A stretch of DNA of 64,000 nucleotides, from the NCBI GenBank assembly GCA_963785235.1, contig CAWAUM010000011.1:233724-297723 (forward strand), written 5' to 3'. Below, in pieces: positions 33,561-58,156 of this stretch; the first letter of the stretch is position 1; each line of letters begins with the position of its first letter. The stretch is from an uncultured delta proteobacterium. GTDB lineage: Bacteria; Desulfobacterota; Desulfomonilia; UBA1062. A program made the translations under genes and the position numbers. Below the pieces are notes generated by a model. That model was not told the origin of the DNA. It was given only the letters and a program-made list of their open reading frames with translations, and did no database searches.

Positions 33561-34284
33561 CCTTCCTCGGCACAATGATCACTTTTTTATAAATACCTTC
33601 GCCAATACTCTTGGTATTAAGCCCGTTCTCATTCTTGAGGGCAAGATGAATGATCCTGCGGTCATAAGGATTCATCTTTTCCAGAGAGATGGCCTGGCCG
33701 GTGCGCTTGGCCTTTTGCCCCATCTTCAACGCCATGGACTTGAGATAGCTCACATGCCTTTGTCGGTACCCTTCCGTGTCCAGGGTTATAAACACCGGTT
33801 CGGACCTCGATTTGTTGATGATCCGGTTGAGGATAAACTGTAAAGAATCCAGTGTCTGTCCTCGTTTGCCGATTATCAGACCGGAACCGTCACCCATGAT
33901 CTCAAGGAGACCTTCTTCACGGACCTTTACCTCTCCGGGCATGTTCAGCAGCCTTAAGAGGTCGCTGACAACCCCTTGTGCCTCTAGAAGCATTTCCGGC
34001 GTTGGTGCCTGGGATTCGCTGGGAGGCTCCGGTTTAGGTTCTGCAGAAGGGGCCGGGGTTGTCTTAATTACTTCTGCTTTGATTCTATCGGGTTTTAAGA
34101 CGGCCTTTTCATGCCTGACCAGTATCTTTGCAGTTTTGTTACCAATGATTCCGAACAGACCCTTGGAGCCCTCGGAAACGACCTTGACCTCGAGGTCGTC
34201 AAAATCAGCATGCAAGGTCTTCATGGCAAGGATGACTGCCTCGTCTACGGTCTTGGCTTCAAATTCTCGGAAATCCTCTTCCAT
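33548..34284 (-). CDS. jag: Jag/KhpB RNA-binding protein (Jag_N, KH, R3H)
   Basis: 245 aa. The KH GxxG is IGKRGQTLDSLQ, and an R3H domain sits at the C-terminus. It occupies the yidC-jag-mnmE position. Confidence 0.8.
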
Positions 34285-34293
34285 TCTTCTCTC

Positions 34294-35887
34294 CTATGCG
34301 GTTTTCCTGTTTATGTAAGCCTGCTGGGCAATTGAGAGGATATTGCTCACGAGCCAGTATATGACCAGACCGGAGGGGAAGCTCAGGAACATGAAGGTAA
34401 AGACAACCGGCATGAAAAGCATGATCTTCTGCTGCATGGGATCACCCGTGGTAGGCGTCATTTTCTGCATGATAAACTGGCTCGCCCCCATGAGGATGGG
34501 AGTGATGTAGTAGGGATCGCTGGCTGAAAGATCCGGGAGCCAGGTGCCGAACATATGGAACGGGGTGTGTCTGAGCTCAATGGCCTGGTAGAACACCTTG
34601 TAGAGGGCAAAGAGAATGGGGATCTGCAGGAGCATGGGCAGGCAACCACCCATGGGGTTGATCTTGTGCTCCTTGTAGAGCCGCATGAGCTCCTGGTTCA
34701 TCTTCTGTTTGTCGTCCTTGTACTGCTGCTGGACCTCCTTCATGAGCGGCTGGATCTTCTGGAGCTCCTTCATGGAGGTGAAGCTCTTGAGGGTCAGAGG
34801 ATAGAGAAGGAACTTGATGATGATGGTCAGGATGATGATAGTCCACCCGTAGCTGCCCACGTATTTGTAAATCCAGTTCATGGACATGAGCAGCGGTTTG
34901 GCGATGATGTCGAAGAATCCGAAATCCAGGGCCTTGTTCAGCTTGTATCCCACAGCCTCCAGGGGTTTCAGCTCTTTGGGGCCTAAGAAGATGATATTGT
35001 CCTTGATCAGTGATGAACCGGCTGCAATAGTGGCTGGGGCAAAGGTGTAGTTGAGCTCCACAGTCTTGTCGCTGGTACGTTTTATGATGAGAGTGGTACT
35101 CGAAGGTGTCTTGGGAATGATGGTCTGGAGAAAGTACTTATCCTCAAACCCGAACCACTGGATCTCTCCGGTGAAATCCCTATAACTCCCGATATTCTTA
35201 ACCTTGTCGATCTTGAATTCTTCAAGGTGCTTGCCGTTCAGCAGAACAGGGCCTTCAAAGGCGTACCCGCTGCTCTTTTCATCAATCTTATAGGTATGGT
35301 TAAACACGATCCCGCCGGATACGGACATGGGTGAGGCGGTATGATTTTCAATAATAGCCTGGTATCCTATCTGATAGGTTTTGGGGTCTATGGTGAATAC
35401 TTTTTTCAGGGTGATGGCGGGCGATGCCTGGCTTCGGAATTCAATGACCTGTGGTATGTCGGCAAGTGTCACGGGACCCTGCTGGGATGATTCATAAACA
35501 AGGCCGACATCTGTGAACCCACCGGAAAGAACAAGGTTAGGCATTGGGGCTTTGATGATCTCAACCGGCTTTGCGTCCTTGTCCATGGAGGTAAGGTATT
35601 TCTTCAATTTTAAAGAGGTGATCTGGGCACCTTTCGTGCTGAAGGTGGCAGTATACAAGGGGGTATCTATGATGACATCGTTACCAGCAATACTGAGAGT
35701 TTGCGGGGCTGTGGTCGGGGCGACATCGATGGGTTGTACCTCCTGAGTCGGCTGGCTTGGCGCTGCAACAATGGGCTGCCGGCTTCGGCTCAGGTGCGGT
35801 TTTTATCTTTGTCTGGTCAAAAAGCAAGCCCCAGCCGAACAGAATGGCCATTGATAAAATGATGGCAAGCAGAGTCCTTTTTTCCAT
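34294..35887 (-). CDS. yidC: Membrane protein insertase YidC (apparent frameshift near 35660-35700)
   Basis: The conserved C-terminal 5-TM core is YPLTLKSFTSMKELQKIQPLMKEVQQQYK...GGCLPMLLQIPILFALY. The N-terminal TM/signal segment is in the separate ORF 35681-35887. Confidence 0.85.
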
Positions 35888-35911
35888 CTCGTCTTCATCT
35901 CCAGATAAGTA

Positions 35912-36121
35912 TTACACAGGGTCGAAGCCGCCTTTGTGAAGCGGGTTGCAGCGAAGCACCCTCCATGCCGCCTTCAGGAGACCTCGCACAGGACCGTACT
36001 TGGCAATGGCCTGGGCTGCATACTCAGAGCAGCTTGGATAAAATCTGCACGAAGGCCTGAGCAGCGGAGAGATAACCTTCTGGTAGAGACGTATCAGTGC
36101 GATGAGTAAGGCTTTTCCCAT
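35912..36121 (-). CDS. yidD: Membrane protein insertion efficiency factor YidD
   Basis: 69 aa. [23 protein letters not shown] is the YidD signature. Confidence 0.85.
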
Positions 36122-36462
36122 GTGTGTGATCCAATGGCCTTTGCTATCTCCTGGGTGAGTTCTTGGTAACCGGTATCCGCCATGCCGTGTTTTGCGATCA
36201 GGATATAATCATGGCCCTGAGGAAACAGATGTTTGTTTCTTCTGTATATCTCTCGCAAGAGCCTTTTTGCCCTGTTTCTAACGACAGCACCCCCGACTTT
36301 TTTGCTCGCAGTTAATCCAATACGAACGTGGGGCAGATCATTTGGAGCAGCGAGGATGACCAGGTGTTTGGTGACCAGTCTCGCAACCTTGTTTTTCTCA
36401 GCCCTTTTGAATTCAATGCGTTTCCTCAGCCGTTCAGCCTGGGGGAATTTCTCGTCCGGCAT
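36094..36462 (-). CDS. rnpA: Ribonuclease P protein component RnpA
   Basis: 122 aa. It has the basic RNR motif region ([12 protein letters not shown]) and sits between rpmH and yidD. Confidence 0.85.
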
Positions 36463-41822: not shown

Positions 41823-43437
41823 CTACTGGGCCAGGATAATCGGTTCAAGCAGGATAACCAGCTCTGCGGTCTCAACGCTTTTTATCTGCTGGCTGAAGAG
41901 GTATCCAATACCGGGGATACTGCCCAGTATGGGTATACTCGTATTTTCCTGTTTCAGATTCTTGCTGATAAGCCCACCTAAGGCAATAATGTTTCCGCTT
42001 TTAACACGGATCTGGGTGGTGGCCTCTTCAAGCTGCACTGTGGGCAGCGTATAGACATTACCGCTGATGTCGCGTTCTTCAAGCTTCACTATCCGGCTCT
42101 TGATGGGGGTGATGCTCAGGTTTATCGAACCGGTATCCAGGTCGATATTGGGCACGACACCCAGCATGATGCCATCGAAGATAGAACCCACGGTCACCTC
42201 TGGTGTAGTGATTGTCGGGCCACCTTCTGTGGAAGTGGTTGTGAGCTTGATCTCCTGGATATATGAGGTGTTCGTGCCCACACTGATCAGCGCCGGCTGT
42301 CCGTTGGTCACCCTTATCCGGGGATTCGAGAGGACCTTTATGTCTCCGAATTCCTGCAGGGCGTTCATGGCTGCATTAAAGCCGTGAACGTCCGATTGTG
42401 CCTGGATCACCAGGGCAGGGGTGAGGTTAGTCGTTGAGAGCGCAAGGTTCTGCTGGATCGGATTGAAGACGATATCATTGATACTGAGGTGGGTGCTGGT
42501 CCAATCGATGCCGTACTGGCTTTTATCCTTCAGCGCGACCTCAATGATCTTTGCCGTGATGAGGATCTGTGAATTATAATAGGCCTTGATGGTCTTGATG
42601 TAGGCATCGATACGATCTATGGCGTCTCTCCTGTCATTTACCTCAAGGAAACCCAAGGCCCTGTTGAGGGAATACGACCCATCGCGGGTCAGGGTTGACT
42701 TCACATGATCCTCGATCTGTGTGCAGATGTCGCTGGTTGCTACAGGGATGGTGTCCTTGATGGAAAATTCACCGCTCAGGCCGTTATCACTTGATCCGCC
42801 ACTTGATCCGCCACCTGAGCCGCCACTTGAGGAGCCCGAAGAAGAACTGCTTGTAGAGCTGCTGATAACATCTCCTCCCACAGACATGGTGGTCTGTTTC
42901 TGGGAAGACAGGAAATTAAGGTGATAGGTTCTTGAGTCAGTACCCTTTACAGACAGTGCGCGTCCGTCCACCTTATAGAAAATGTGCAGTGCAGATGCTA
43001 CGTTCTCCAGGGCCTCTTCCAGTGGCGTCCTGTTAAATGCAATGGATACGGGCGGTAGAATAATGGGACCTTTGGCTGTTTGTTTATCTTTGGCCGCATC
43101 AGCTGTTTCTTCGGATAGATCGGTGCCGGTGCCCGCCTTAAGGCGTGAGTCAACCACCAGGTCCAGTCCCGCCCTTTCCGCAACGGCTGCAAATACATCG
43201 GTGAAAGCGGCATTGCTTGCGTTAAGGGTTATGGTCTTGCCTTTCAATGGATTCAGCTTGGCCACCTTTGCTTTGGGCAAAAGACTCTAAAGGTTTTGCC
43301 GCCTCAAGAGGTGTTGCAGCTTCCTTTTCTTTTTCAATGGAGAAATCCTCTTTCTTCATCAATTTGTCTGTGGTGCATCCGGAAAGGAAGACGCAACAGA
43401 TAACCGTGAGTAGTGAATACCTAATAAACTTTAACAT
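41823..43437 (-). CDS. Secretin (GspD/PilQ family) lipoprotein of a second T2SS/T4P-like system; apparent frameshift near 43250
   Basis: The C-terminal secretin domain is GQPALISVG...TSIPILGSIPGIGYLFSQ...AELVILLEPIIL. A Gly/Ser linker follows. The N-terminal lipoprotein signal (VFLSGC) is in the separate ORF 43222-43437. Confidence 0.75.
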
Positions 43438-43870
43438 GAAGGGTCTCCCTGGTACCGTTTTTGTTAGTAGTGATCACCTGGTCCGGTCCAATGGATGATA
43501 TTTGAAAGCTTTGTGTCTTGTCGCCAAGGCGCATTTTCTTTCCATTGATGATACAATAGCTTTGAGAACCTGCCTCAACAATCATACTTACCCTGACCGG
43601 TTCTGCTTCGGCCTTAACAGGAGGGTTTCCATATAAGGCATCCAAAGGCATGGTCCACTCGTGGCGAAAGACATCCCGGATGTCTTTGGCTGCAAGATCG
43701 GAATCGTCTTTAAGGGTGAAGATGCTCAGTTTATCAACATAGGTGAGGAACTCAGGTTGCTCGAGAGTAATGTTTTTGTTTTCGCGAAAAACATATGGAA
43801 CTGCGATGCACAATATAAGCGCAATGAGGGGCAGCATAAAGATCAGGATGAGGTTTTTGTCCAACTTCAT
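43421..43870 (-). CDS. PilP/GspC-like secretin-interacting protein (single TM + C-terminal beta domain)
   Basis: 149 aa with an N-terminal TM helix. The C-terminal IINGKKMRLGDKTQSFQISSIGPDQVI resembles the PilP/GspC homology region. It lies immediately upstream of the secretin. Confidence 0.45.
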   Translation of the reverse strand: MKLDKNLILIFMLPLIALILCIAVPYVFRENKNITLEQPEFLTYVDKLSIFTLKDDSDLAAKDIRDVFRHEWTMPLDALYGNPPVKAEAEPVRVSMIVEAGSQSYCIINGKKMRLGDKTQSFQISSIGPDQVITTNKNGTRETLHVKVY

Positions 43871-44281
43871 TCAGTTCCCGCCCCCAAGCTTGAAGCCTTT
43901 CATGCTGACCGTGATACCTGATGAAGTGCTTGTAACAATTGCCTTTTCAAGAAAGAACATGTCTTGTGCATAGGTCGAGGCAACCTCGGAAAACAGTTTT
44001 TTTACATCGTGGTCCGTCAGGGTGATTTCATAGTCCACGTTGATACCCCGTTCATGGGAAAGGGTGATCAGTTTGGCGCTGTATGCCTTGATGGACTCGA
44101 TCTTTTTTACATATTGTTTACGCTGCTCACTGGTCGCCAGGATCGCTCCCAGCTTGGCCTGGTTGAAGGTTATCTCCCTTGCTGCATGTACGTAATAGGC
44201 AAAGCCGGATATAACCAGCACGGCGCTGATGATGCCCATTATCAGGGCGAGGCGATAATACCTCATGGTTTTATCTCGCAA
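43871..44281 (-). CDS. GspM/PilO-like bitopic inner-membrane assembly protein
   Basis: 136 aa with a single TM helix after a short cytoplasmic N-terminus and a periplasmic alpha/beta domain. Its position between the GspL-like and GspC-like genes supports the call. Confidence 0.4.
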   Translation of the reverse strand: MRDKTMRYYRLALIMGIISAVLVISGFAYYVHAAREITFNQAKLGAILATSEQRKQYVKKIESIKAYSAKLITLSHERGINVDYEITLTDHDVKKLFSEVASTYAQDMFFLEKAIVTSTSSGITVSMKGFKLGGGN

Positions 44282-45699
44282 TTCAGGCTGAATTCAGCAA
44301 GCTGTTCCTTGTGGTTGTAAGCGGCCTTTGAGACGGGAAAGACCTCCTGCATGGTCATGATGAAAGATGAGAAGATCTCTTTGGATTTCGGGTAGGGAGA
44401 GTTGATGATGCCTTCTATTGCTATCCCGAATGAATTTGCATGAGATGTGCGATGAGCTTCTGCAGCGACAGGCATGGCCCTGCCCTTGGGAATGTCTTCC
44501 TGCAGGGAGGACCTGTTGACCTCGATCCTTGTAATGAAGACATTGGCCGGTACTCCCTGGGTTATGGTTTGTACAATTGATTGCAACTTGGGCTCAGCCT
44601 GGAAATCTTTATAGGTATCGACGATGGTGTTGATATTCGTCAGGTCAAGATTTTTGCTCAGGGATGTATAATCGTCTTCAAGCTCTTTGAGCTGCTTGGA
44701 GCTCTTATAAATTGCCGAATTGGTCCTCTTCTCCAAGGCCTCGGCCTTTGTGGTGTTGCTCCACCCCAATGCAAAAAACACAAAGGCCATCAGGATCATT
44801 ACCAATGATATGGCGCAAGAGATTTTTGCATATCCCACAATCCTTCTGGTCCGGTGCAGTTTTTCAGGGGTGAAGTCATAGCAGGGTTTCATGGCGGTTC
44901 CGAAGAGCACGATTGCAGCGGCGTCCGGATCTCCGGTTTCACTCAGGCTGAAAGGGACTGTATGGATGTTATGCTTTTCGAGATCGGATATATTGATCTC
45001 TCCTTGTCCTATATAGTAGATCTTCTGGACCTTTTCCTGGTTGGAGCTCTGCAGCATGGAGGTCATTTCCCGAATGCCGGAAACCGTATCGGCCTGGGCA
45101 TCGAAGGACTCGGCATAGTTAACGGTTATGAGGTAATAGATGATCCCGGATTTTGCGCCGATGATCCGGATGAAACGGGTGTCTTCATAGACGATGATCA
45201 CCATGTTTTTGTCAATGGAACCCACTGCCGAGGCGATGGATGACTCGATGGGGCAGAACATGTCCACAAGGGCCTCATCCTCGTCAATGAGATCGGTCCT
45301 GGTCAGTTCATTTGAAGGGATGGCCAGGTAGGAATACCTGCCCTTGAGGTTGTCTATATCCTGAATCTTGGCAAAGGCGACATGGTAAGTGTCCTTGAAG
45401 AGACCGAGTTTATCAATGGTAGATCGGATATGGGCTGTTGTGGCCTCCTTGCTGATACGGGAAAACTCACCCACATCCGAGTAGATGCCTCTGGATGAGA
45501 AGCATATGGACATGCCGGGCGCCTTGCGCGAGATGTCTGTCAATGAAGTGGAATCGACCTTCTTCATGTCTTTAAGGACGATCTTCTGTCCGGCGCCGGA
45601 ATAGGATGCAATGCAATGCTCCTCTTCGCCCAGGATAACGGCAATGCCCTTTTTCGGCCCCATTTTCATCGAGATAAATTTAGTCAATATGTCATTCAT
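44263..45699 (-). CDS. GspL-like / PilM-PilN fusion-like assembly protein (cytoplasmic actin-like domain, TM, periplasmic domain)
   Basis: 478 aa with one central TM helix (AISLVMILMAFVFFALGW), a cytoplasmic domain of about 290 aa before it and a periplasmic domain of about 160 aa after it. The architecture matches GspL. Confidence 0.45.
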   Translation of the reverse strand: MNDILTKFISMKMGPKKGIAVILGEEEHCIASYSGAGQKIVLKDMKKVDSTSLTDISRKAPGMSICFSSRGIYSDVGEFSRISKEATTAHIRSTIDKLGLFKDTYHVAFAKIQDIDNLKGRYSYLAIPSNELTRTDLIDEDEALVDMFCPIESSIASAVGSIDKNMVIIVYEDTRFIRIIGAKSGIIYYLITVNYAESFDAQADTVSGIREMTSMLQSSNQEKVQKIYYIGQGEINISDLEKHNIHTVPFSLSETGDPDAAAIVLFGTAMKPCYDFTPEKLHRTRRIVGYAKISCAISLVMILMAFVFFALGWSNTTKAEALEKRTNSAIYKSSKQLKELEDDYTSLSKNLDLTNINTIVDTYKDFQAEPKLQSIVQTITQGVPANVFITRIEVNRSSLQEDIPKGRAMPVAAEAHRTSHANSFGIAIEGIINSPYPKSKEIFSSFIMTMQEVFPVSKAAYNHKEQLAEFSLNCEIKP

Positions 45700-45773
45700 A
45701 TTTGTGAGTGTAGAGGATAAACCTCTCCACTTACTATGTTCTCGGAATTACGATTTGGTTTCTTTAGGATATT

Positions 45774-46412
45774 TTAAGGGAGTAATCCATGGAGATACGT
45801 GAGGCTCACAGTCTCGAGGATATCATCATAATTTGAGTTTATTAATGCAGAAGGAGAGGCGAATTGGTTATTATCACTGTTCGTGATACGCCCATCTCCG
45901 GTGTCGTCATTGGGAGTGTCTGCCCGCAGGTTTTCTCCCCCGGAAAGAACGACAAAGGCCACCTTCATGTTTCCATTGTCACAGAAGAGATCCGGAGCTG
46001 TTGTTCCATTGATAAGCTGACCGATTGTTGTTTTAAGCGTGGCGGGCGTAGTTGAGGTCAGATGTGATTCAACGGAATAAAAGAGGGTGGTCTGATAAGG
46101 GTCCTTGCCATTGATGCCGAGCGTTACCCAGGGCAGATAGCCATTTAGTCTGTTAGTAGTTTCAGCCCCATTGATGTTAGCGCTGGCAAACGGCAACCTT
46201 CCTGTGGCCAGGGCATACCCGATGATGGCGGTCCTGACTTCTTTGACAAACATCCGGTCATCCTTCAACTTGTTCTGCTTGATCAGCATGGGGAGGAGTT
46301 GTGCGCCAAGTCCCACAAGGATGCCGACTATCACGAGCACAAAGGCCATCTCGATGAGGGTAAACCCCTTTCGTGAAAAAGGCTTGCTCAGGCAGCAGCC
46401 TCTCCTTGTCAT
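45774..46412 (-). CDS. Prepilin-type N-terminal cleavage/methylation domain protein (pseudopilin)
   Basis: The class-III signal is SRKG|FTLIEMAFVLVIVGILVGLG, with E at +5. The likely start is MTRRG at 46412. The track ORF starts further upstream. Confidence 0.7.
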   Translation of the reverse strand: MTRRGCCLSKPFSRKGFTLIEMAFVLVIVGILVGLGAQLLPMLIKQNKLKDDRMFVKEVRTAIIGYALATGRLPFASANINGAETTNRLNGYLPWVTLGINGKDPYQTTLFYSVESHLTSTTPATLKTTIGQLINGTTAPDLFCDNGNMKVAFVVLSGGENLRADTPNDDTGDGRITNSDNNQFASPSALINSNYDDILETVSLTYLHGLLP

Positions 46413-46428
46413 AAGGTCATTGTTCACC

Positions 46429-47643
46429 CTAGCCACCCCCAAGCTTGGACATGAGGTCGTAAACCGGACCGATAAGGGAAATGACGATGAAGACGAAGAT
46501 GCCGCCCGTTATGACTATGGCAATGGGCTCAATCATCTTGCCCAAGATGTCTACAAAACGCGATGTCTTCAATTCGTAGGTATCTGCAAGATATTTCAGC
46601 CTCTGATCCAGGGTACCGGTCTTCTCGCCCACGCTGACCATCTTCAACGTGATGGCATCAAAGAATTTCGTTACAGTGAAGGCCGTCAGCAACGAATTGC
46701 CCATGTTGGTTTCATTACGTATACGTATGATGACCGAGCGGATGAGGTCGTTGTGAAAGACCTTTTCAAGGATATCAAGCGCTTTTGTAAGTGTCACGCC
46801 GGACTGAAGCATGAGGGACATATTCGAGAATACCAGGGTAAGGGTTGAGCATTTCAGCAGATCGCCCACCACGGGAAGACTGAAGGCAACACGGCTCAGC
46901 ATCAATCGTGTTCTAGGAATTTTTCCCAGAATGACAAACCCTATGGTAATCAATCCGAGTGCAATGGGGTATAGCAACCAGTTATCTTTGGAGAATTGGA
47001 CGAAATTGACAAGGCTCAACGTGATATTGGGGAGCTGGACATTGATCTCCTTGAAGGTTGAAACAAGGCGGGGCAGCACGAAAAAGAGCCAGAAGATGAT
47101 GACGCACAGCATGGCAGCCACCACGAAGCCCGGATAGATCAGCGCCCTCTTCACCTGGGAAACAATACTGTCCACCTTTTTTAAATAATTCGCGGTATTG
47201 TCCAGGGCTGTTTGAATGGTACCGGTCTCTTCTCCGATATGGCAGAAAAATATGAGCATCTCGGGAAACACCTCGGGCCGGCGTGAAAATGCCCCTGATA
47301 AAGACTCTCCCTGGGCAATGCCCCCGATGACCTCATCGATTGCATCTCGCAGGCGTTTTACCCTGATGGTTTCCTTGATGCTTTCCATGGATTCCAGTAG
47401 GGGCAGGCCGCTGCCGAGCATGGAGGCAAGGGATTCACAGAATTCCGCTATCTCGATCTTCTTAACTGCCGGCTGGGTAAGGGTCTTGATGGTTTCAATT
47501 ATCTGATACCTCTGTTCGCTGTAACGGATAAGCGTCATTTCCTGAGAGGAAAGGTTCTCCATCAGATCCCGGATGCCCTCGAAATCGCCCTTGGAGGCAA
47601 AGATTGTTCCGTCTTTCTTCAGGGCATTGTACGAAAGGATCAT
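46429..47643 (-). CDS. gspF: T2SS/T4P inner-membrane platform protein (GspF/PilC family)
   Basis: 404 aa with a duplicated T2SSF domain and three TM segments. Confidence 0.85.
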   Translation of the reverse strand: MILSYNALKKDGTIFASKGDFEGIRDLMENLSSQEMTLIRYSEQRYQIIETIKTLTQPAVKKIEIAEFCESLASMLGSGLPLLESMESIKETIRVKRLRDAIDEVIGGIAQGESLSGAFSRRPEVFPEMLIFFCHIGEETGTIQTALDNTANYLKKVDSIVSQVKRALIYPGFVVAAMLCVIIFWLFFVLPRLVSTFKEINVQLPNITLSLVNFVQFSKDNWLLYPIALGLITIGFVILGKIPRTRLMLSRVAFSLPVVGDLLKCSTLTLVFSNMSLMLQSGVTLTKALDILEKVFHNDLIRSVIIRIRNETNMGNSLLTAFTVTKFFDAITLKMVSVGEKTGTLDQRLKYLADTYELKTSRFVDILGKMIEPIAIVITGGIFVFIVISLIGPVYDLMSKLGGG

Positions 47644-49277
47644 TACCGCAAAACCCTCCAGATCTCTGCGAAGCTTGTCGTACCGTTAAGTATCTTGCGG
47701 ATGCCGTCACCCCGGAGCGTTACCATGCCTTCTTCCACAGCCTTGTCTTTGATCTCGAAGGGGTGTGACCCCACAGAGATGAGGCGCTCGATCTCTTTGG
47801 ATATAACCAGGATTTCCGCCACCATGATCCGGCCCAGGTAGCCGGTCTTTATGCACCTGGGGCATCCTACCGGGGCATACAGGGTTGTCCCTTTCTGGAT
47901 GCCGAATACACGGTGCTCTTCGTCGCCTGAATCATATGGCTGCTTGCAGCTCGGACAGAGTGCCCGGACGAGCCGCTGCGCTATGACGCAGATGAGTGAT
48001 GATGATATCATATAGTCCCTCATGCCAAGGTCTTTGAGCCTGGGTACGGCTCCGGAGGCATCGTTGGCATGCACCGTGGAAAGGACAAGGTGCCCTGTCT
48101 GCGCAGCGCGGAGCGCCATGGTCGCCGTATCGCCGTCCCGTATCTCACCGATAAGGATGACATCAGGGTCCTGCCGTAAAAAGGCCCTGACCGCGCTTGA
48201 GAAGATATACCCGGACTTCTCGTTAACCTGGGTCTGGCGGATCAGCGGGAACTGGTACTCAATGGGGTCTTCAACGGTCACGATATTTTTTTCAATGGAG
48301 CTGATCTCCCGCAAGGCCGCATATAAGGTTGTAGTTTTTCCTGACCCTGTGGGGCCGGAGACTAAGACCATGCCGTAGGGCTTGTGCAGAAGATCCCTGA
48401 GCTGGGTAATATCATCAGGATCCAGGCCAAGGCTCCGGATGTTATACAACTCCTCCGAGGAAGCCAGGATGCGCATGACCATGTTTTCCCCATTGGTAAC
48501 CTTTAAGGTAGAGACACGGATGTCATAGTGCTCATTTAAAAAATCAAAGGAGAGCCTTCCATCCTGGGGTTTGCGCTGTTCCGAGATGTCCATCTCGGCC
48601 TTTACCTTGATGCTGGAGATAACCCTGGAGTGCACCTCGATGGGAAAGGAGTAAAACGGGTAGAGTATGCCGTCGATGCGGTAGTGGATCTGTGTTGTCT
48701 TGTTCGTGGGGGTTACGTGGATGTCCGTTGCACGGGAGTTGATGGCGGACATGATCAGCAGCCTCACCAGTTTTTCTGTATCCACGTCGTGCGGATTATA
48801 CTTGGAATGTTCGAGCTGCTGCTCGATCTCTTCTTCTATGGGGTGTTCCAGGAGGTAATAGTCTTTTTCAATGTGCTTCTGTATCTGCGATGGCGATGCA
48901 GCCACAAACCGGATGCGTTTTTTCGAGATGCGTGAGGCAAGGTCTGACAGTTTCGTATTATCCGGTTCGCTCGTGGCTATGGTCAAGGTAGTGTCCTCGA
49001 CACTTATGGGAAGCAGGGAGTTCTCGCGTGCAAATTGCACGGGTAAAGCAGAGAGCGCTTCTTTCTGTGGTGAGAAATGACGCAGCTCTACAAACTCGAT
49101 GCTGAACTGTTTTGCAATGGACTGGGCAAGTTCCGTCTGGGTGACAAGGCCAAGACGGATCAGGATATCGCCGACCCGTTCCTTGGTGGCACGCTGTTCT
49201 ATAAGGGCAAGGCCGATTTCCTTATCGCTGATGATCCCTTCATCTTTGAGAAGATCACCAATGCGTTTTTTCTCCAT
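47643..49277 (-). CDS. gspE: T2SS/T4P assembly ATPase (GspE/MshE family) with N-terminal tandem MshEN-type c-di-GMP-binding motifs
   Basis: Walker A is GPTGSGKTT. Asp box, Walker B and His box are present. The tetracysteine is CPSC...CPRC. The N-terminus has RIGDLLKDEGIISDKEIGLALIEQ and RVGDILIRLGLVTQTELAQSIAKQ, each matching RLGxxLxxxGxIxxxxLxxALxxQ. Confidence 0.9.
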   Translation of the reverse strand: MEKKRIGDLLKDEGIISDKEIGLALIEQRATKERVGDILIRLGLVTQTELAQSIAKQFSIEFVELRHFSPQKEALSALPVQFARENSLLPISVEDTTLTIATSEPDNTKLSDLASRISKKRIRFVAASPSQIQKHIEKDYYLLEHPIEEEIEQQLEHSKYNPHDVDTEKLVRLLIMSAINSRATDIHVTPTNKTTQIHYRIDGILYPFYSFPIEVHSRVISSIKVKAEMDISEQRKPQDGRLSFDFLNEHYDIRVSTLKVTNGENMVMRILASSEELYNIRSLGLDPDDITQLRDLLHKPYGMVLVSGPTGSGKTTTLYAALREISSIEKNIVTVEDPIEYQFPLIRQTQVNEKSGYIFSSAVRAFLRQDPDVILIGEIRDGDTATMALRAAQTGHLVLSTVHANDASGAVPRLKDLGMRDYMISSSLICVIAQRLVRALCPSCKQPYDSGDEEHRVFGIQKGTTLYAPVGCPRCIKTGYLGRIMVAEILVISKEIERLISVGSHPFEIKDKAVEEGMVTLRGDGIRKILNGTTSFAEIWRVLR

Positions 49278-49466
49278 AAGACCCGTTCCCGCTCCTTAAG
49301 CAGTGCAAATTGAGAAATCACTCAAAGATATGTCCCTGCAAGAATCTCCTGTTGGAGAGTAGCCTTTCGGGTTTGTCTTCCACCTTCCTATCACGAGTGG
49401 GTGCATGATGTGTCATGCCCCAAACAACGCACGTGTGGGCCGGAAGACACCATCCTCGTGATACGG

Positions 49467-50060
49467 CTACATTCTCCAGTAGACAGTCTTAACCGTTGTT
49501 GCCGTATAAACAGTGTTGGCCCTCATGGTCCCTGTGTTGTAAACCGCGTCATCATATTTTCTGTCCATTTCCTGGGCAACCTCATAGGGGATCTGGGTGT
49601 ACACGATACAGTTCGCGTTCAGCGGTGTTGCAGACCCTGGGGGAGTAGCCAAATACTGGATGTAGGCCTGGCCTCCAAAGGGGTTTGTAGGGTAATCGTT
49701 AGCCGCTCCGGTATAGCCCCCGTTGATGATCTGTGCCAAGACGAGGTCCTGGAAGAGAACAGAGCGCTCGGTATTCGCATTGATCTGGCCGTTTCCTGCA
49801 GTCGCAGCAGGATCTGTATGGCCCTGTGTCGGGATATTAGCTACAGGTGCATCACCCGGATAATAGTTATACCTGTCATAATAGGTATAGAAGGCCGCGG
49901 TGAGTGAATCCTTCTGGTTGACTAACTTCTTGACCTTTGCATTCTGAATGAGGGCCTCGCCCTTGAGTACGCCTGTAATGAGCAAGCCGATGATCACCAA
50001 CACCAGTGCAAGTTCAACAAGGGTAAAGCCGCCTTTTTGTCGATTTCTAAACCGTTCCAT
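49467..50060 (-). CDS. Major (pseudo)pilin, GspG-like type IV pilin
   Basis: The prepilin leader is MERFRNRQKG|FTLVELALVLVIIGLL. The GspG-like region is NQKDSLTAAFYTYYDRYNYYPGD. Confidence 0.75.
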   Translation of the reverse strand: MERFRNRQKGGFTLVELALVLVIIGLLITGVLKGEALIQNAKVKKLVNQKDSLTAAFYTYYDRYNYYPGDAPVANIPTQGHTDPAATAGNGQINANTERSVLFQDLVLAQIINGGYTGAANDYPTNPFGGQAYIQYLATPPGSATPLNANCIVYTQIPYEVAQEMDRKYDDAVYNTGTMRANTVYTATTVKTVYWRM

Positions 50061-50180: not shown

Positions 50181-52331
50181 TTATTCTTTATGCGTAATGA
50201 TTCGTCTCCCAAGTGTCAGGGGGGATATGCCCGGTATAGTGGAGATGTCCTTGTTATATACAGCTCCTGTTGAAGATATGAATTTCATGACACCATTGTC
50301 CAGATCAATGGAAGGACCAAAAGCGCTGCCCATAAACATGGCCTCTGACTTTGTTTGCCTTCCAGTGAGGGAATCATACTCTTGAAACATGGATATGCCG
50401 GTGTCAATACCTCCGCAGGGAGAATCTTCTTTCCAGGTGCTTAAGAATAACCTGTTATCCATGATTGTCATGCCTGAGGGTGAGCCTCCTTCAAGGGAGA
50501 CAGACCAAACGATATTCTCTTTGGTATAGCATTCAAGGCGTTTATTACTTGCCACGATGAGGTGAAGCTCCTTTCGCCAATGGAACGGACGTATCTCCAT
50601 AATGGGATTATTGGCGGTGGTGTTTATGATGCCCAAGAGTTCGAGCCTGTTGTTAAAAAGATAGACAAGTCCGTCGGATGTCCCTGCAAAAACCCCAGCT
50701 GTGCACGGATCATAGCGCACGACATTAATGGTATGATTAACTTCGAATTGAGCCGTCCCTATGCCGTTTCCAAGATTGTACGCATATATCGTGGAGCCGT
50801 TACTGATATAGGCCATGGATTCGGATGCGTCGATAAAAGACCCTTTATGCTGCCAGATTATCTGAGGTCCCTGGCCTATACACGAAATGATGCCCAGTCT
50901 GTTCGGGCCTGTTATGACCCGTTCGCCTCTCAGTCGCACCTCGCCCCCTATACCTGTCATGAGCCACGTCAGGCTGCCTTCGGGCATGGTGACATTGAGG
51001 AGCTGATCGCGGGATGTAGTGCAGTACAGGTCTGTCTGTGTGGCTGCAAGGTCATGGGCAAGGCCATTCAGGGAATAACCCGGGCAGGATACCAGGCTTA
51101 AAGGACTGACGACACTCGGTCTGTAAAACCGGCATTTGTCGGTTTTGAGCCATGGCGGATCGAGCCGTGCACGGAGGTTTTTCAGTATCATGTCCTGGTC
51201 GTTACGAACCACTATAGGCTGGGTAACCAGCATCTGTTCAGGAACGAGTATCTCCCGTGCCGGCATATACTGACCCCCGCCCTTTATAGCAACACTTCTC
51301 AGATACGCCGTATCAGGGCCGATAATGTGGACATTGATGCCCAGAGACTTCGCATAGGATGAGACATCATCAAGGCAGTGAGAGCCTTCCCCTTCAAAGG
51401 CAGCATCTTTGGCGTTTCCATCATGATCAAAGTCCTTCAGCCAGGAGGGGAGATGGCCGTCGTTTATGGGAACACCTGCAGTAACCAGAATGATATGTTT
51501 GCCGGATACACACTGCGAAGGGAACAGGGTTGTTGCATTATAAAGTGCCTCCGATAAAGGGGCTGAGCCCGATGCCGGATGAACGCCGTCAAGGCCCTGA
51601 AGGATCTGCTGCCATTCAATGGTAAAAGTTTGGATCAGGCCTTGTGACGTGCTCATAAGGGACACTTCACACAGATCCAGTGATTCAAAGAGCGACTTTG
51701 CGTAGGAGAAGGACTTTGTCCACACTGACATTGCACCTGTCAGGCTGCCGAGTGCCGGGGCCCTTTGATATGAGTTGCCCCAGCTTCCCTTGAAATAGGT
51801 GCCCTCAGCGTTCGTGTAGGTGTCTTCAAACTCACAGATATCACTGATGTGGGTTATGCCGCCTGTGGCCCATTTTGAGTAGAGCGCATCGTCTAAGAAA
51901 TCTTGGCCGGATGATGTAATCGTGCTTAATGAATCATCGATGATAATTATGATATGTGGTCTCTGGGCAATCCGGGTGGTGCCTTGTGGGATATCCGCAC
52001 TCTGTTCCCTTAGTGCCACACACCAGGAATATGACTGCATGGCGCTGGTTGCATGTTCGGTGAGCCTGGTGGAAAAACATATATGGTCCCACCCTTCAGG
52101 CGCCACAAGCAGTTTATGGGTTGCGGATGGCATAGTCCCGTTTTGGGGAGCAAAGAGCTGATCTTTAATAATACGATAGAAGGCGTTGCTCGATTTCATA
52201 TGGTACAAGGTTATGGAAGCGGACGCCATGGTAAGCCCCAGGATCACGGTAAGGAGTAGGAGTACAAAGGCAAGGATAAAACCTTGCTCATTGGATGGGG
52301 GATGATAAAGAGAGTTCCTTCTCTGTTCCAT
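50181..52331 (-). CDS. Large modular pilin-like protein with vWA (MIDAS DxSxS) domain and C-terminal beta-rich domain (PilY1-like / tip adhesin candidate)
   Basis: 716 aa. The pilin-like N-terminus is NEQG|FILAFVLLLLTVILG. HIIIIIDDSLSTITSSG is a vWA MIDAS motif, and a conserved Thr motif (HIILVTAGVP) is downstream. Its start overlaps the upstream minor pilin gene. Confidence 0.55.
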   Translation of the reverse strand: MEQRRNSLYHPPSNEQGFILAFVLLLLTVILGLTMASASITLYHMKSSNAFYRIIKDQLFAPQNGTMPSATHKLLVAPEGWDHICFSTRLTEHATSAMQSYSWCVALREQSADIPQGTTRIAQRPHIIIIIDDSLSTITSSGQDFLDDALYSKWATGGITHISDICEFEDTYTNAEGTYFKGSWGNSYQRAPALGSLTGAMSVWTKSFSYAKSLFESLDLCEVSLMSTSQGLIQTFTIEWQQILQGLDGVHPASGSAPLSEALYNATTLFPSQCVSGKHIILVTAGVPINDGHLPSWLKDFDHDGNAKDAAFEGEGSHCLDDVSSYAKSLGINVHIIGPDTAYLRSVAIKGGGQYMPAREILVPEQMLVTQPIVVRNDQDMILKNLRARLDPPWLKTDKCRFYRPSVVSPLSLVSCPGYSLNGLAHDLAATQTDLYCTTSRDQLLNVTMPEGSLTWLMTGIGGEVRLRGERVITGPNRLGIISCIGQGPQIIWQHKGSFIDASESMAYISNGSTIYAYNLGNGIGTAQFEVNHTINVVRYDPCTAGVFAGTSDGLVYLFNNRLELLGIINTTANNPIMEIRPFHWRKELHLIVASNKRLECYTKENIVWSVSLEGGSPSGMTIMDNRLFLSTWKEDSPCGGIDTGISMFQEYDSLTGRQTKSEAMFMGSAFGPSIDLDNGVMKFISSTGAVYNKDISTIPGISPLTLGRRIITHKE

Positions 52332-52980
52332 GGTATCTTGACCTCATGCGAATTGTCAGATCATTGCCTGAAATCGTTGGATGAAAGAGGACTACTGCCT
52401 CTGCAAGCAGTTGGTTGTTCCGGTAGAGGCCGTCTCCCTTCAGTTCATAGTGGATAGCCGGGACCGCCCTGTTGCCTTGTACAGGCATTATGGCGCATGT
52501 CAGAGGGAGGGTTTTTTTATCCAGGCCCCGTGAATAGTTGTGGCCTACAACACAGGGGCCGTTCTCGGTTATTATTCCAAGGTCGGCCCAGAAGTCTGCG
52601 CGGCCGTCATTGTCGATATCTACGGTATCGAGTATTGCAACCCTTTCAGCTGAGGAATTGATGAGTGCATAGTAAGGTGCCGGATTGGTCAAGGATATGC
52701 TGATACCGGGATTTTCAGATGTGACAGGCACCCCTGCAATAAAAAGCTGGCTGCCTTCAATCGCAATCTTAAGGTCCTGCGGGAGCAATAATGCACACTG
52801 AACGAGATCTGCATTCAGCTGGATAGAGGCCTGGCGGAGCGACTGCATGCAATACCATGCCTCTCTCATTTCTTTATGCGTAACAGCCGAAACCTGGTAG
52901 AATTGATAGAGAGCGAGAAAAAGTATTGATGAGCATGCAAGCGCTATAAGCAACTCCACCATGCCCACACCTCTTTCCAT
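52288..52980 (-). CDS. Minor pseudopilin (prepilin-type N-terminal domain, GspJ/PilW-like)
   Basis: 230 aa. The N-terminus MERGVGMVELLIALACSSILFLAL has G at -1 and E at +5. It is the first gene of the operon. Confidence 0.5.
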   Translation of the reverse strand: MERGVGMVELLIALACSSILFLALYQFYQVSAVTHKEMREAWYCMQSLRQASIQLNADLVQCALLLPQDLKIAIEGSQLFIAGVPVTSENPGISISLTNPAPYYALINSSAERVAILDTVDIDNDGRADFWADLGIITENGPCVVGHNYSRGLDKKTLPLTCAIMPVQGNRAVPAIHYELKGDGLYRNNQLLAEAVVLFHPTISGNDLTIRMRSRYHGTEKELSLSSPIQ

Positions 52981-53200
52981 TGTATGCCCCTTCCACTATA
53001 AAATATACTTATATGAAAGGAGGGATAATTCTTGGGAATAGAGATTAAACAAGAGAGAGCAGCAAGCTCAACAACAATACAATAAATACAGTTTAATATA
53101 ATACTATGAACCCGGTGCTTGTCAAGGGATGAAAGTACGCCTTAGGAAAATGACAATGGACAACCTTAAGAGATATTGATAATAATCGCACCAAAACAAG

Positions 53201-54855
53201 ATGGAGCGCATGCAGAGCAGGGGAAATATACTTATCGCGGTTATTGTGGTGATCGCCATTGCCATGACCCTGTTCCTGATTGTACCCCTTGGCGGTAAGG
53301 TGGGGCAGCTCAGGGAAGCCACCATCTCGTTCATCTTCCGGAAGCCCCCGCAGTTCACCTCCATGGAGGTCGATGTGGAGGGGGCCCGCAAGGTGGTAAG
53401 AGCGGGTGAGTCACTCAAGATCAAGGGTGGTGAGACCATCATCATCACCAAGGTCCATGCAAATACGTTCTTCGATTCATACCTGTCTGCTGATGTTGTA
53501 GGCTTCAGTAAACCAAACGACATGAATGAACCCATCGATACGGTGGAGATCCGCAATCAGCTCATAGCCGCCGGCATCAAATCGGTCCCCATTGATATTT
53601 TCTACCTCGACCGGAAGATCGCCAAGGTCCCCCTTGAGTTGGATCTGAATGAGCAGGACTTTATCAATCAGATAAGATCAGCCAAGAGTGATGAGGAAAA
53701 GATCTCCCTTTTGCGCTCCGCACATGCAACATTTCCGAAGAATATGTCCTTTCTGGATGAGCTTGATAAGCTCTTGAGTGCTAAAGAAGATTACCAGGCA
53801 CTGGTGGGGATCTATAAGGGGGTTGTGGAAGCCGATCCTGCGAATTTGGCGGCATACTTGAATCTCTCAGCATATTACATAAAGCTGAAGAACTACGATG
53901 AGGCCCTTGCCATGTGCCGGAAAATTATCGATGCGGGCAAGGCGGATGCGGTCATTTACCGCCGCATGGCCTATATCGCAGGCGAAAAGGGTGATCTTGA
54001 AAACCGTGTTGTATACCTGAAAAAGGCCCTTGAACTTGATAAACAAAACGAAGCCGTGGTTGTCGACCTGGCCAAGACCTATGAACAGGCAGGCATGAAA
54101 CAGCAGGCCCTTGATGTGTACCAGTCTGCTTCGGATATTGCCAAGGACAGGGATATCCTTATCCCTCTGATTCAAAATGCGATGAAAAAAGAAGATTATA
54201 AAAAGGCGCTCGATCTTCTGAAGCGCTACATTCAGCGCTACCCCAATGATAAGAATGCCACTTGCTCAGCTTGCCATGGTCATGGGCAAGCTGGGTGATA
54301 CAAAGGCGCAGGTTATATATTACCAGAAGGCGGCTGAACTTTCGCCTTCAGACAGCGTGATCTGGTATAACCTCGGTGTTGCCCGCGAAAAACTCGGCGA
54401 TAACAAGGGCGCCCTTGACGCCTATGACAAAGGTGCTCCAGATGAAGCAGGCAGATATGGATTCCATGCAGGCTGCGGCAGGCCTGTCTTTGAAACTGGG
54501 CCAGTACAAGGATGCATACGCGTATTATTCATCCCTGGCGAAAAAGACATCCAAGAAGGAACACCTTAAGGGACTTGTGAGCGCCGCTGTCGGATTGAAG
54601 GACCAGGACAAGGTTATCGAGGCCGGTACCTTGTTCCTCAAGAACAACAAGGACCATGACGTGGCCATGGCACTCGGGTATGCCTATGAGTCCAGGGCTT
54701 CTACACGTGAGCCCCGGGCAAAGCTGGATGACCTGAATAAGGCCTTGGAGGCATATCAGACAGCCCGTAAGGTCAATCCCGCATCCAGGATTGCAGGCGA
54801 GAAGATACCCGAGCTTAAGATTGAGATCCTTAAGCTCAGGAAGGCAAGGCAGTAA
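53201..54855 (+). CDS. TPR-repeat membrane-anchored protein (two apparent frameshifts near 54250-54300 and 54400-54480)
   Basis: It has an N-terminal TM helix followed by many TPR repeats spread across ORFs 53201-54298, 54246-54569 and 54376-54855. It is transcribed divergently from the pilus/secretion operon. Confidence 0.5.
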
Positions 54856-55577: not shown

Positions 55578-56237
55578 ATGTCCAAGGATTATTACCGGAT
55601 TCTGGAAATATCCAAGGATGCAACGTCTTTAGAGATCAAGAAGACCTACCGCAGGCTCGCCCTTCAATATCACCCTGATCGTAACCCCGATAGACCCGGC
55701 CTATAGAGCATTTCAAGGAGATCACCGAGGCATACGGGGTGCTTATCGACCCGGACAAGCGGCGGAAATATGACATGCAGCGTGAGATTCTCCTTCAACC
55801 GGGAGACGGTGTTCGAAGATATCTTATCCAAATCAGAGTTCCGGGACGTCTTCGATGATCTGCCCATACGAAAAGAATGGATTGACCGCATATTGAACGT
55901 GAGCAAGGTCTTTGCCTATGAGGCCTTTGTGGTGGGAGGCACGCCCAGTGCAATCCTGAGGCGGTCCATGGTGCGCCTGGCATCGCAGGGATTGAACAGG
56001 ATGTTCCATGCAGTCATGGACATGCACGAAAAGGTTGCCATCCCTTCAAGCATTGCCGTGCTCGGGGGATACATAACCCTGGAGTACAGGCCGGGCTTTG
56101 TGAAACACAAGATCCGTGTGAAAATACCCAGGAACACGCAGCAAGGCACAATGCTCAGGGTCCTGGGGATGGGCAGGTCAAGCCCGTCAAGAAAGGCAGG
56201 GGACCTCTATTTGCAGGTGGACATCGAATCGTTGTAA
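55578..56237 (+). CDS. J-domain protein (CbpA/DnaJ-like), two apparent frameshifts
   Basis: The J domain is [34 protein letters not shown], then [23 protein letters not shown] in another frame. The C-terminal DnaJ_C-like [22 protein letters not shown]...GDLYLQVDI is in ORF 55770-56237. Confidence 0.65.
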
Positions 56238-57151
56238 ATGACGATCTGGTTCTTGCCGTGCGTCTTGCCCCAGTACATGGCCGCATCCGCCATTTTGATG
56301 ACCTCGTGCGGATCGCTGGAATCCTTCGGCAGGCTGGAAAGGCCTATGGTGACGCTGACCTCAAGCGTTGATTCAACCGTGCTGCAGATACGCTCTGACA
56401 CCACCACGGCCTCTTCAATGGAGGTTTCGGGGAAGAGGATAATGAACTCCTCGCCGCCATAACGGGCAAGGATGTCGCAGTTTCTCGTGTTATGCTTGAA
56501 CACATGGGACAGGCGCACGAGCATTTCGTTGCCCTATTCATGCCCTTTGGCGTCGTTGTACTTCTTGAAATCGTCGATATCGATCATGGCCAGAGACATT
56601 GTCCTGTTGTACCGCAGGTGTCTCGAAACCTCGTTCTTGAGTACGCTCATGAGGTGCCGGAAATTGTACATGCCCGTGAGTTCGTCGGTGCGGGAGAGGT
56701 TCCGGTAGTAGTCAGCCAGTTCGGCCTCCTCTTTGAGCCTGACCTCTTCGAGGATCCTTTGGATGGTGAGGTGGAGGTGGTCGAGCAGAATCGGTTTGGT
56801 AATAAAATCCGAGGCGCCGAGCTTCATGCATTCCACTGCATCACGAATGGTGCCGTACCCGGTAATCATGACAGCCTGGATATCGGACCTGATCTTTTTG
56901 ATGGATTTCAATAACTCCGAACCTGTCATGCCCGGCAGGTGAAGATCCACAATGGCTATATGAAAGAGGTCTTTCTGGACGAATGCAATTGCCTGCTCCC
57001 CACTCATGGCGGTTGTTACATCAAAATCGTGCCCTAAAAGATACTCTTCAATAAGATCAAGGGTCTCCTGTTCATCATCCACAATCAGGACCCGAGTTGT
57101 TTTCTTCACAAGCGTGGCACCCATCGTATCAGCCGTTCTCCTTGTCCTCAC
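56207..57151 (-). CDS. Response regulator with GGDEF output (diguanylate cyclase, PleD-like); one apparent frameshift near 56525
   Basis: REC is VLIVDDEQE...AIVDLHLPGMTG. The GGDEF domain has RYGGEEF in ORF 56207-56524. Confidence 0.8.
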
Positions 57152-57348
57152 ATAATAATTCCATGAAGAGAACTTACAACTATCTTCATACTAACGGATA
57201 ATTGTCTACAATTCATGAGAGTTATTTTCGTTTACCGTCAGGGGGTGCTAGTATTAGCGAAATAATTTCAAGTAGGTGTCTCATGAGCTTTTATGTATAA
57301 CAGAATTCCCTCTAAAGATATTTTAAAAAAAGTCCGTTAAAGGGTGGG

Positions 57349-58156
57349 ATGCAACAGGCTTGTCTTATCAAGAAGATTGAACAGCATATTGAGAGTATTC
57401 CGACGCTTGAGTCCAGCCGGATGAGGCTCTTTAATGTGCTCCAGGAGGAAGAATCCTCCATAGAGGGTATTGAGCAGGTAATATCCAGTGATCCTGCCCT
57501 TGTAGCCAAAGTGATCAAGCTGGCGAATTCGTCGTTCTACCGTCATGCCGACAGGCATGTGGGAATCCAGCAGGCATTACGCACCATCGGTCTTGACATG
57601 GTGAAATGCATCGCATTGTCCATGGCCGTGATGGAGACCTTCGGCACCCAGACCCCTTCAATGAAGCAGCTCTGGAGGCATTCCTATGCAGTGGCTTATA
57701 TATCAGGACTGCTCGGGAATTCCAAAGCCGAGAAGGAGTGTCTCTTCACCGGGGGGCTTCTCCATGATATCGGCAGGATGATACTGATCTGCAGAGACAC
57801 CTGAACACTATCTTCCCCTTTGCGAATTCACCGGTAGCTGGCCCGATCTGGCATTAGAGCGCGATGTTTTCTCCATGGACCACACAATAATCGGCGAAAT
57901 GATCGCGAAGCGCTGGCATTTTCCGCCGGAAGTCATAGCGCTGATAAGGTATCATCATGAACCAATGAGCCGAGCAACCGCCCTTGTTTATCTGACGGAT
58001 CAGGTCGTCATGCAGCATGAGAGGGGTTTGATCACAGAAGATTTTGAGCAGGAGGTCGGAATCAGAAACCATCTTGGTGATGAGTATAAAGATCTTGTAA
58101 ATACTATTAGACAAAGGTATAGAACGAACACGGTTATATTTGAAAATTTGGGGTAA
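57349..58156 (+). CDS. HDOD domain protein (apparent frameshift near 57800-57880)
   Basis: The HDOD signature is ALVAKVIKLANSSFY...ALRTIGLDMVKCIALSMAV...GGLLHDIGRMIL. The continuation is in ORF 57875-58156. Confidence 0.7.

Follow-up and report, generated by a model that had tools for sequence, protein, structure and literature searches.

A PilY1-type von Willebrand A protein with a pilin-like N-terminus, candidate tip and priming protein of a divergent type IV filament system in uncultured Desulfomonilia-type bacteria

Recent proposals tie the licensing of type IV filaments to a C-terminal strand by which the sheet of the apical pilin is completed, and a relative of PilY1 carrying an apical-pilin N-terminus would be a natural test case linking the trans and cis modes in which this strand is supplied. 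A 64,000-nucleotide stretch of an uncultured delta proteobacterium (GTDB lineage Desulfobacterota; Desulfomonilia; UBA1062; GenBank assembly GCA_963785235.1, contig CAWAUM010000011.1, positions 233,724 to 297,723 of the forward strand), hereafter the window, encodes a candidate for such a protein. At positions 50181-52331 of its minus strand, which also bears all features described below unless another strand is given, an open reading frame (ORF) encodes a 716-residue protein that combines a prepilin-like N-terminus, a small beta module, a PilY1-type von Willebrand A (vWA) domain and a beta-propeller. The original prediction, made from inspection of the sequence, saw in it a modular pilin acting as a metal-dependent adhesin at the pilus tip. 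The explanation that we hold to be moderately probable is that the protein is the tip and priming protein of a type IV filament machine of the mannose-sensitive haemagglutinin (MSHA)-like type, uniting in one chain the roles of PilX/PilK and PilY1.

The predicted ORF is borne out as a real gene by full-length homologues in some 35 species-level genomes (about 35 loci in a scan of 185,579 species genomes) and by ratios of nonsynonymous to synonymous substitution (dN/dS) of 0.17-0.30 among family members. All that the original prediction read directly off the letters proved correct. Searches of Pfam, NCBIfam and PDB with the single 716-residue protein gave no match, and no Pfam or NCBIfam model covers the family. 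A word-indexed search recovered 30 clusters, almost all of about 716 residues and none annotated, and an exhaustive hidden Markov model (HMM) search of 1.84 billion representatives returned only 29 matches at E < 1e-30. All genomes carrying the gene are metagenome-assembled genomes labelled Desulfomonilia, Thermodesulfobacteriota, Syntrophaceae or 'Deltaproteobacteria'. The family is small and restricted to Desulfomonilia-type assemblies, from uncultured anaerobic bacteria of digesters, peat and sediments, habitats in which adhesion and syntrophic contact are important. Residue frequencies given here refer to 23 aligned members, 21 of which cover the column of Gly17.

Profile alignment shows the vWA domain (residues 120-362; 51246-51974) to be homologous to that of the PilY1 family. 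Beyond the family itself, the weaker matches of the family profile in the exhaustive search fall on the propeller or on residues 254-366, and four of ten scanned matches to the latter region (P0075, P0093, P0097 and P0125) carry the PilY1 propeller family PF05567, P0075 also carrying VWA_2. Alignment with hhalign gives 97.7% (E 2.5e-12) against P0075 over residues 104-364 and 95.9% against the PF05567 protein P0097; together with the motif TDG.P..D..LP.WLKDYD.D...GS..LDDVA.YA, common to this protein and the PilY1 vWA, these alignments place the domain in the PilY1 type by homology, beyond analogy, and the likeness to PilY1 suggested earlier hence holds. The two strings from which the original prediction had deduced a vWA fold, HIIIIIDDSLSTITSSG (D132-D-S134-L-S136) and HIILVTAGVP (278-287), are present and align with the beta1 'vlvilDnSgSM' and beta4 'iivTDGyP' strands of the PilY1-type domain. 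The fold itself was confirmed by this alignment and by a structure model of residues 1-400, modelled separately to expose it because matches to the propeller swamped the fold search with the whole model.

The metal-ion-dependent adhesion site (MIDAS) of the domain is degenerate. When its ligands are mapped through the hhalign alignment to the PilY1-type vWA, a DxSxS remnant is left at D132-D-S134-L-S136 (51924-51938), with Asp at position 132 in 21 of the 23 members, Ser at 134 in 20 and Ser or Thr at 136 in 13. The Thr position is Ala257 in the window protein and Ala, Cys or Ser across the family, never Thr, and the Asp of TDG is Ala285, with Asp in two members and Ala, Ser or Gly in the other 21; a complete set of five ligands occurs in none. 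A functional MIDAS is thus rejected, Thr being lost throughout, Asp in 21 members and the third Ser not being conserved, and with the site incomplete in every member MIDAS-dependent adhesion is not supported. The proposal of a metal-dependent adhesin acting through this site is hence unlikely. An Asp-rich loop between beta4 and alpha5, D300-F-D302-H-D304-G-N306-A-K-D309 (51405-51434), is a candidate Ca2+ site, in which D300, D302, D304 and D309 are invariant and N306 is kept in 22 of 23 members. In ordinary vWA domains the beta4-alpha5 loop holds the MIDAS Asp, so the D300-D309 loop should lie on the MIDAS face. Its homologue in the PilY1 relative P0093, DWDNDGWAD, is an exact calcium motif 1, and the loop of the window protein, one residue longer, matches exactly none of the motifs 1-3 published for PilY1 (PMC13190605). 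Neither the window protein as a whole nor any member's propeller contains an exact copy of these motifs, and RGD is not a conserved feature of the family. Judged from its residues, the D300-D309 loop is a likelier metal site than the MIDAS, and Ca2+ binding there is plausible; given the erosion of the MIDAS, any metal dependence would more likely work through this loop and through the calcium motif of a PilW-like partner protein described below. A PilY1-type vWA can lose its MIDAS yet keep the Asp-rich loop, which points to Ca2+ over Mg2+ or Mn2+ chemistry.

Ahead of these domains the protein starts with MEQRRNSLYHPPSNEQG|FILAFVLLLLTVILG, a hydrophilic basic leader of residues 1-17 (52281-52331) followed by a hydrophobic helix, FILAFVLLLLTVILGLTMASASI..., spanning residues 18-47 (52191-52280). 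Positions 2-16 of the leader are variable, and the Gly17 on which it ends is present in all 21 covering sequences. Next to it, at +1, comes W, F or L; position +5 varies among F, Y, L, H and M and is Glu in none of the 23, a feature of PilX/PilK-type pilins. No D, E, K or R appears until residue 42-46 or so, which leaves an uncharged stretch of about 24-26 residues, and K46, S47 and F51 are among the most conserved positions. PilX_N (PF14341) is the only pilin-type Pfam family to match this N-terminus, below threshold and in four of 23 members (E 0.19 for the window protein over residues 16-48, 0.051 for the best member), and the JGI pipeline labels P0059, an N-terminal fragment of a close homologue, as 'PilX'. 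Alignment of the N-terminal module with PilW by hhalign was not significant, and its profile returned only fragments of the same family from a set of 5.8 billion proteins. The PilY1 relatives P0075, P0111, P0071 and P0093 have short Sec signals for signal peptidase I (SPI) that lead straight into the vWA, without this module of about 105 residues. The conserved N-terminus is consistent with a class III leader and pilin-type helix, in which cleavage after Gly17 is putative and unproven. The part of the original prediction that described a pilin-like start lacking Glu at +5 therefore stands as a conserved, Gly-preceded helix; the part that made it a true class III signal or pilin is unproven.

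The genomic position of the gene supports a tip and priming role. As was predicted, the gene lies between a minor and a candidate major pilin gene, flanked on one side by the gene of a 230-residue prepilin (52288-52980; MERG|VGMVE, with Glu5) directly upstream and on the other by that of a 197-residue GFTLVE prepilin, in a ten-gene operon that runs from the 230-residue prepilin through a secretin. The 230-residue protein is specifically PilW/GspJ-like by profile comparison: N_methyl is detected in all 18 homologues, G4 and E9 are invariant, and hhalign against PilW of a reference canonical cluster (L043; order FimU-PilV-PilW-PilX-PilY1) gives 94.5% over residues 2-71, against 17.7% for PilV, 17.1% for FimU and 0.4% for PilX as controls. 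A six-frame scan of the window finds four prepilin-like N-termini only, all within the operon, and that of the 716-residue protein is the sole one without Glu5. In every locus with upstream sequence (35 of 36 genome loci) the PilW-like gene lies directly upstream of the 716-residue gene, and since no other Glu5-less pilin is present, the arrangement is collinear with pilW-pilX-pilY1, the 716-residue gene occupying the combined slot of pilX and pilY1. The reported 44-nucleotide overlap of the two reading frames was confirmed at 52288-52331, and its conservation at 41-44 nucleotides in homologous loci (L001, L002, L004 and L042) agrees with the translational coupling then suggested.

The PilW-like protein itself contains, at residues 121-129 (52594-52620), an exact PilY1-type calcium motif 1, DIDNDGRAD (Dx[DN]xDGxxD), whose D121, D123 and D129 are invariant in the 18 homologues, and three members of its family give weak FG-GAP_3 matches. 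Elsewhere, a 539-residue protein with a PilX_N N-terminus (L044, 1-1383) adjoins a canonical FimU-PilW-PilV-PilX-PilY1 cluster, indicating that large PilX-type modular proteins exist in other loci.

An AlphaFold2 model of the whole protein, built on the 23-sequence alignment, reaches a predicted local distance difference test (pLDDT) value of 87.1 and a predicted template modelling (pTM) score of 0.82, and lays out helices at 16-47 and 49-59, three strands within 69-107, an alpha/beta domain at 125-355 and about 30 strands from there to the C-terminus. The C-terminal half, predicted earlier to be beta-rich, is all-beta in the model, where its 30 strands fold as a propeller, as the fold search also finds. 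This propeller (residues ~365-700; 50232-51239) is generic, PQQ/WD40-like, with best matches that are eight-bladed, and the family profile matches the PQQ-type propeller YxaL at E 1.7e-4. Residues 48-110 (52002-52190) comprise a KSSxAF helix and a three-strand beta meander (69-75, 86-94 and 98-107) with invariant PEGWDH, F86, T88 and W103; absent from PilY1 relatives, this module is proposed to be a small pilin-like head. Its pLDDT of 82-96 in the full-length model falls to 54-63 once residues 401-716 are removed, from which it appears that the module leans on the C-terminal half. The chain ends in a conserved peptide (residues 701-716; 50184-50231) in which G701, L707 and G708 are followed by a basic and hydrophobic strand, RRIITHKE; G701 and G708 are invariant, and the model places a strand at 705-711. 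The peptide resembles the PilY1 C-termini ...SGLIYWREH and ...SGLKFWIEK, and we propose that it is a strand completing a pilin-type sheet.

In known systems, the priming complex has PilX, PilK or GspK, all without Glu5, at its apex (PMC12918778, PMC7541494), and on these PilY1, a Sec/SPI protein, docks (PMC7541494). The last ten or so residues of PilY1 complete the PilK sheet in trans, and GspK and CpaL do so in cis (PMC12918778), CpaL consisting of a vWA domain joined to a pilin-like module (PMC11870444). In the tip and priming model, the N-terminus of the 716-residue protein would act like an apical Glu5-less minor pilin of the PilX/PilK/GspK class and insert in the inner membrane, prepilin peptidase probably cutting after Gly17. 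The protein would then pair with its PilW-like partner, 1:1 through translational coupling, to nucleate filament assembly, the vWA and propeller would ride at the tip as an adhesive or sensing head, and the C-terminal peptide may give in cis the beta-strand that PilY1 gives in trans to PilK. The conservation of this peptide, the PilY1-like design and the drop in confidence of the N-terminal module in the truncated model would fit such a cis arrangement. A narrower claim, tentative and in our estimate doubtful, is that in this protein an apical minor pilin of the Glu5-less PilX/PilK kind and a PilY1-type adhesin are naturally fused into one chain, within an MSHA-like filament outside the Tad class, and that the C-terminal strand of the chain completes its own pilin sheet in cis. 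If it were true, the protein would be an evolutionary intermediate between the trans arrangement of PilY1 docking on PilK and the cis arrangement of GspK and CpaL, and with its PilW-like partner would form a portable two-gene tip cassette.

Several observations weigh against the tip and priming model. N_methyl (PF07963) matches none of the 23 members at E <= 1, none bears a TIGR02532 signature, and hhalign of the N-terminal module against genuine PilX gives a non-significant 1.7%. In the model, pLDDT falls to 45-49 at residues 41-60, and no helix packs against a sheet in the manner of a true pilin fold. The propeller matches neither PF05567 nor 3HX6, the seven-bladed modified propeller of PilY1. 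Covariation computed on 62 non-redundant sequences (mutual information with average product correction, MI/APC) to place the C-terminal strand gave phylogenetic noise only. No prepilin peptidase gene was found in the scanned parts of the window, and residues 36-38 of the window protein form a textbook AxA site (ASA38|S), a plausible site for SPI. Furthermore, although 22 loci keep the full operon in the same gene order, in about one third of loci the eight genes from the 197-residue pilin through the secretin (window 41823-50060) are cleanly missing between identical flanks (L042 at 12151-12191, L002, L012, L001/L035, L039, L026 and L037); in L042, whose target protein is 84% identical, the gene is directly followed by a PHP gene. 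The 716-residue protein is intact and constrained in these machine-less genomes (66% identity and dN/dS 0.17 between L001 and L039), as is the pair that it forms with the PilW-like protein (dN/dS 0.17-0.26). The pair, being kept under selection without adjacent machine genes, works without a machine encoded in cis and is not strictly tied to that one: either it uses another filament machine or it acts off the filament. If the pair were the portable tip cassette of the narrower claim, it could, staying under selection after the loss of its cognate machine, plug into a different type IV filament machine.

The AxA site lends itself to an explanation in which the protein is an ordinary, soluble PilY1-style protein whose long Sec signal is cut by SPI after Ala38 and which docks non-covalently on a minor-pilin complex. 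Residues 1-17 would be its n-region and 18-31 its h-region, followed by Gly32 and a c-region LTMASA|S with the classic AxA site, and the low model confidence at 41-60 would fit a linker. The closest vWA relatives of the protein have SPI signals, and every characterised PilC/PilY1 uses the Sec/SPI route (PMC7541494, PMC12918778). Across the family, however, only 11 of 23 members have Ala at the -1 position of this cut, ten having L, V, Y or F there and one Gly, and the residues just past the cut (K46, S47 and F51) are highly conserved. An SPI signal, moreover, gives no reason for a Gly at the boundary of n- and h-regions in 21 of 21 sequences, the uncharged stretch is long for an SPI h-region, and the operon holds no separate PilX/PilK-type pilin to dock on, all of which makes this explanation unlikely. 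The original reading, a bimodular adhesin of the Streptococcus sanguinis PilB type that binds through a functional MIDAS, can appeal to the DxSxS string of the window protein, and we regard it as very improbable: the Thr, Asp and third Ser of the site are lost or unconserved as described above, the domain is closest to PilY1 and not to PilB in sequence, and a second large module, the propeller, is present.

The survival of the two-gene pair bears on a further alternative, in which the protein is an uncleaved, inner-membrane-anchored periplasmic assembly or regulatory factor of type II topology, for instance a Ca2+-sensing or secretin-gating partner of the PilW-like pilin, acting off the filament. 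A basic leader followed by a long uncharged helix and the lack of a pilin signature agree with such an anchor, signalling roles of PilY1 outside the pilus have been reported (PMC5979040, PMC13001225), and purifying selection on the module where the adjacent ATPase-to-secretin genes are deleted is easier to understand if its role is not bound to that filament. Indeed, the survival of the pair without the machine is the main reason why this alternative keeps weight. It leaves the invariant Gly17 without explanation, though; heads made of a PilY1-type vWA and a propeller are known as tip adhesins, and a protein so closely coupled to a genuine prepilin with Glu5 would be expected to enter the filament, so that we give an anchored factor little probability.

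The remaining genes of the operon describe the machine that such a protein would serve. The 197-residue GFTLVE prepilin (49467-50060) has a strong ribosome-binding site and its own intergenic region and is a candidate major pilin. The machine genes from ATPase to secretin (41823-49277), assigned with Pfam and NCBIfam, include a PilB/GspE-type ATPase with an MshEN domain (47643-49277), a GspF/PilC platform protein (46429-47643), a GFTLIE prepilin of 222 residues (45774-46442), three proteins of 478, 136 and 149 residues, and an MshL-like secretin (41823-43280) that scores 245 bits against TIGR02519 MshL, whose cut-off is 250.2. The ATPase and platform protein score under every equivalog cut-off, which marks the machine as a divergent member of the type IV filament systems that shows MSHA-like traits. 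Before its conserved C-terminal domain the secretin bears a long Ser/Gly low-complexity tract, SSSTSSSSSGSSSGGSGGGSSGGSS, at residues ~130-165. Upstream of the PilW-like gene, the best sigma-70-like promoter match is TTGACA-16-TATTAT (53098-53125; 11/12), a consensus match only, and inspection by eye found no good sigma-54 promoter match upstream of the 197-residue pilin gene.

MshEN is a module that binds cyclic di-GMP (c-di-GMP) in MshE, and in all relatives the locus is flanked by genes for a GGDEF response regulator and an HDOD protein (window 56207-58156); the ATPase domain and these neighbours suggest c-di-GMP control of the filament. In the window genome, the conserved upstream neighbours look damaged by comparison with their intact L042 homologues (53201-54855, plus strand; 57349-58156, plus strand; 56207-57151, minus strand): two frameshifts interrupt a 550-residue tetratricopeptide repeat (TPR) gene and one the HDOD gene, and the response-regulator gene has an in-frame TAG at 56534-56536, inside its GGDEF domain. 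This damage could be real decay or assembly errors. Farther away, synteny with L042 identifies 31698-36462 as an rnpA-yidC-jag-mnmE-gidB cluster; such clusters usually lie near the chromosomal replication origin, and the cumulative GC skew of the window rises steadily without a turn. Transglycosylase (361 residues; 23142-24227, plus strand) and transpeptidase (387 residues; 24384-25547, plus strand) ORFs follow one another head to tail, as though one class A penicillin-binding protein had been divided in two.

Among known systems, the original prediction blended PilY1-type adhesins with the modular vWA pilins. Of the latter, S. sanguinis PilB combines a class III signal of canonical form (IPR012902) with a complete pilin fold and a MIDAS that binds metal; none of these is demonstrable in the 716-residue protein, which has a propeller in addition. 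Of that blend the PilY1 kinship is upheld through vWA homology, and the PilB-type MIDAS pilin is not, for no member has a complete MIDAS or an N_methyl match. Vibrio cholerae MshQ, which has been proposed as a functional PilY1 analogue (PMC12918778), is likewise large, and its gene follows those of the minor pilins in an MSHA-type locus; the secretin and ATPase of the operon described here are MSHA-like; MshQ, however, has about 1200 residues and, in the published model, has no pilin-like N-terminus of its own and docks in trans on MshP, a separate homologue of PilK (PMC12918778). Membership of the MshQ family was rejected, with no NCBIfam or Pfam match and no sequence similarity detected. CpaL/TadG of the Tad (type IVc) systems offers an architectural parallel: in one chain, a pilin-like module at the N-terminus precedes a large middle part with a vWA domain, a C-terminal strand folds back onto the pilin module, and the whole acts as a PilK analogue at the tip (PMC11870444, PMC12918778). 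CpaL differs in having a complete predicted MIDAS and no propeller, and the operon has a PilB/GspE-type MshEN ATPase, a GspF platform and an MshL-like secretin and no Tad components. TadG/CpaL membership was also rejected, there being no match to Tad families or to TadG/TadE signatures and the machine context being wrong.

The protein also has counterparts in both partners of canonical tip complexes. As in PilK, PilX and GspK, Gly stands at -1 ahead of a hydrophobic helix that lacks Glu5, and the gene directly follows one of the PilJ/PilW/GspJ type, and GspK also combines a large inserted domain with a C-terminal strand of its own (PMC12918778, PMC8179133). It shows no significant sequence match to that class (PilX_N below threshold, hhalign at the level noted above), and its cargo, a PilY1-type vWA and propeller, is not known there. 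With PilC/PilY1 (PF05567; Pseudomonas aeruginosa PilY1, Myxococcus xanthus PilY1.3, Neisseria PilC) it shares an N-terminal vWA, homologous in the two, followed by a C-terminal beta-propeller, as well as conserved cysteines, the Asp-rich loop, a gene right after that of a PilW-type minor pilin and an expected role in priming and tip adhesion. At 716 residues it has about half the length, or less, of those full-length members of the PilY1 family that were recovered (1271-1524 residues), its propeller is of the PQQ/WD40-like and not the PF05567 type and lacks the published PilY1 calcium motifs, and a module of about 105 residues with a Gly-preceded, Glu5-less helix stands where PilY1 has its Sec/SPI signal. 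Furthermore, where canonical PilY1 clusters have a separate pilX gene, this operon has none, leaving a minimal tip set of a PilW-like pilin and one fused protein. Unlike known PilY1 proteins, then, this one begins with a pilin-like, Glu5-less membrane helix, and looks like a natural fusion of an apical minor pilin with a tip adhesin.

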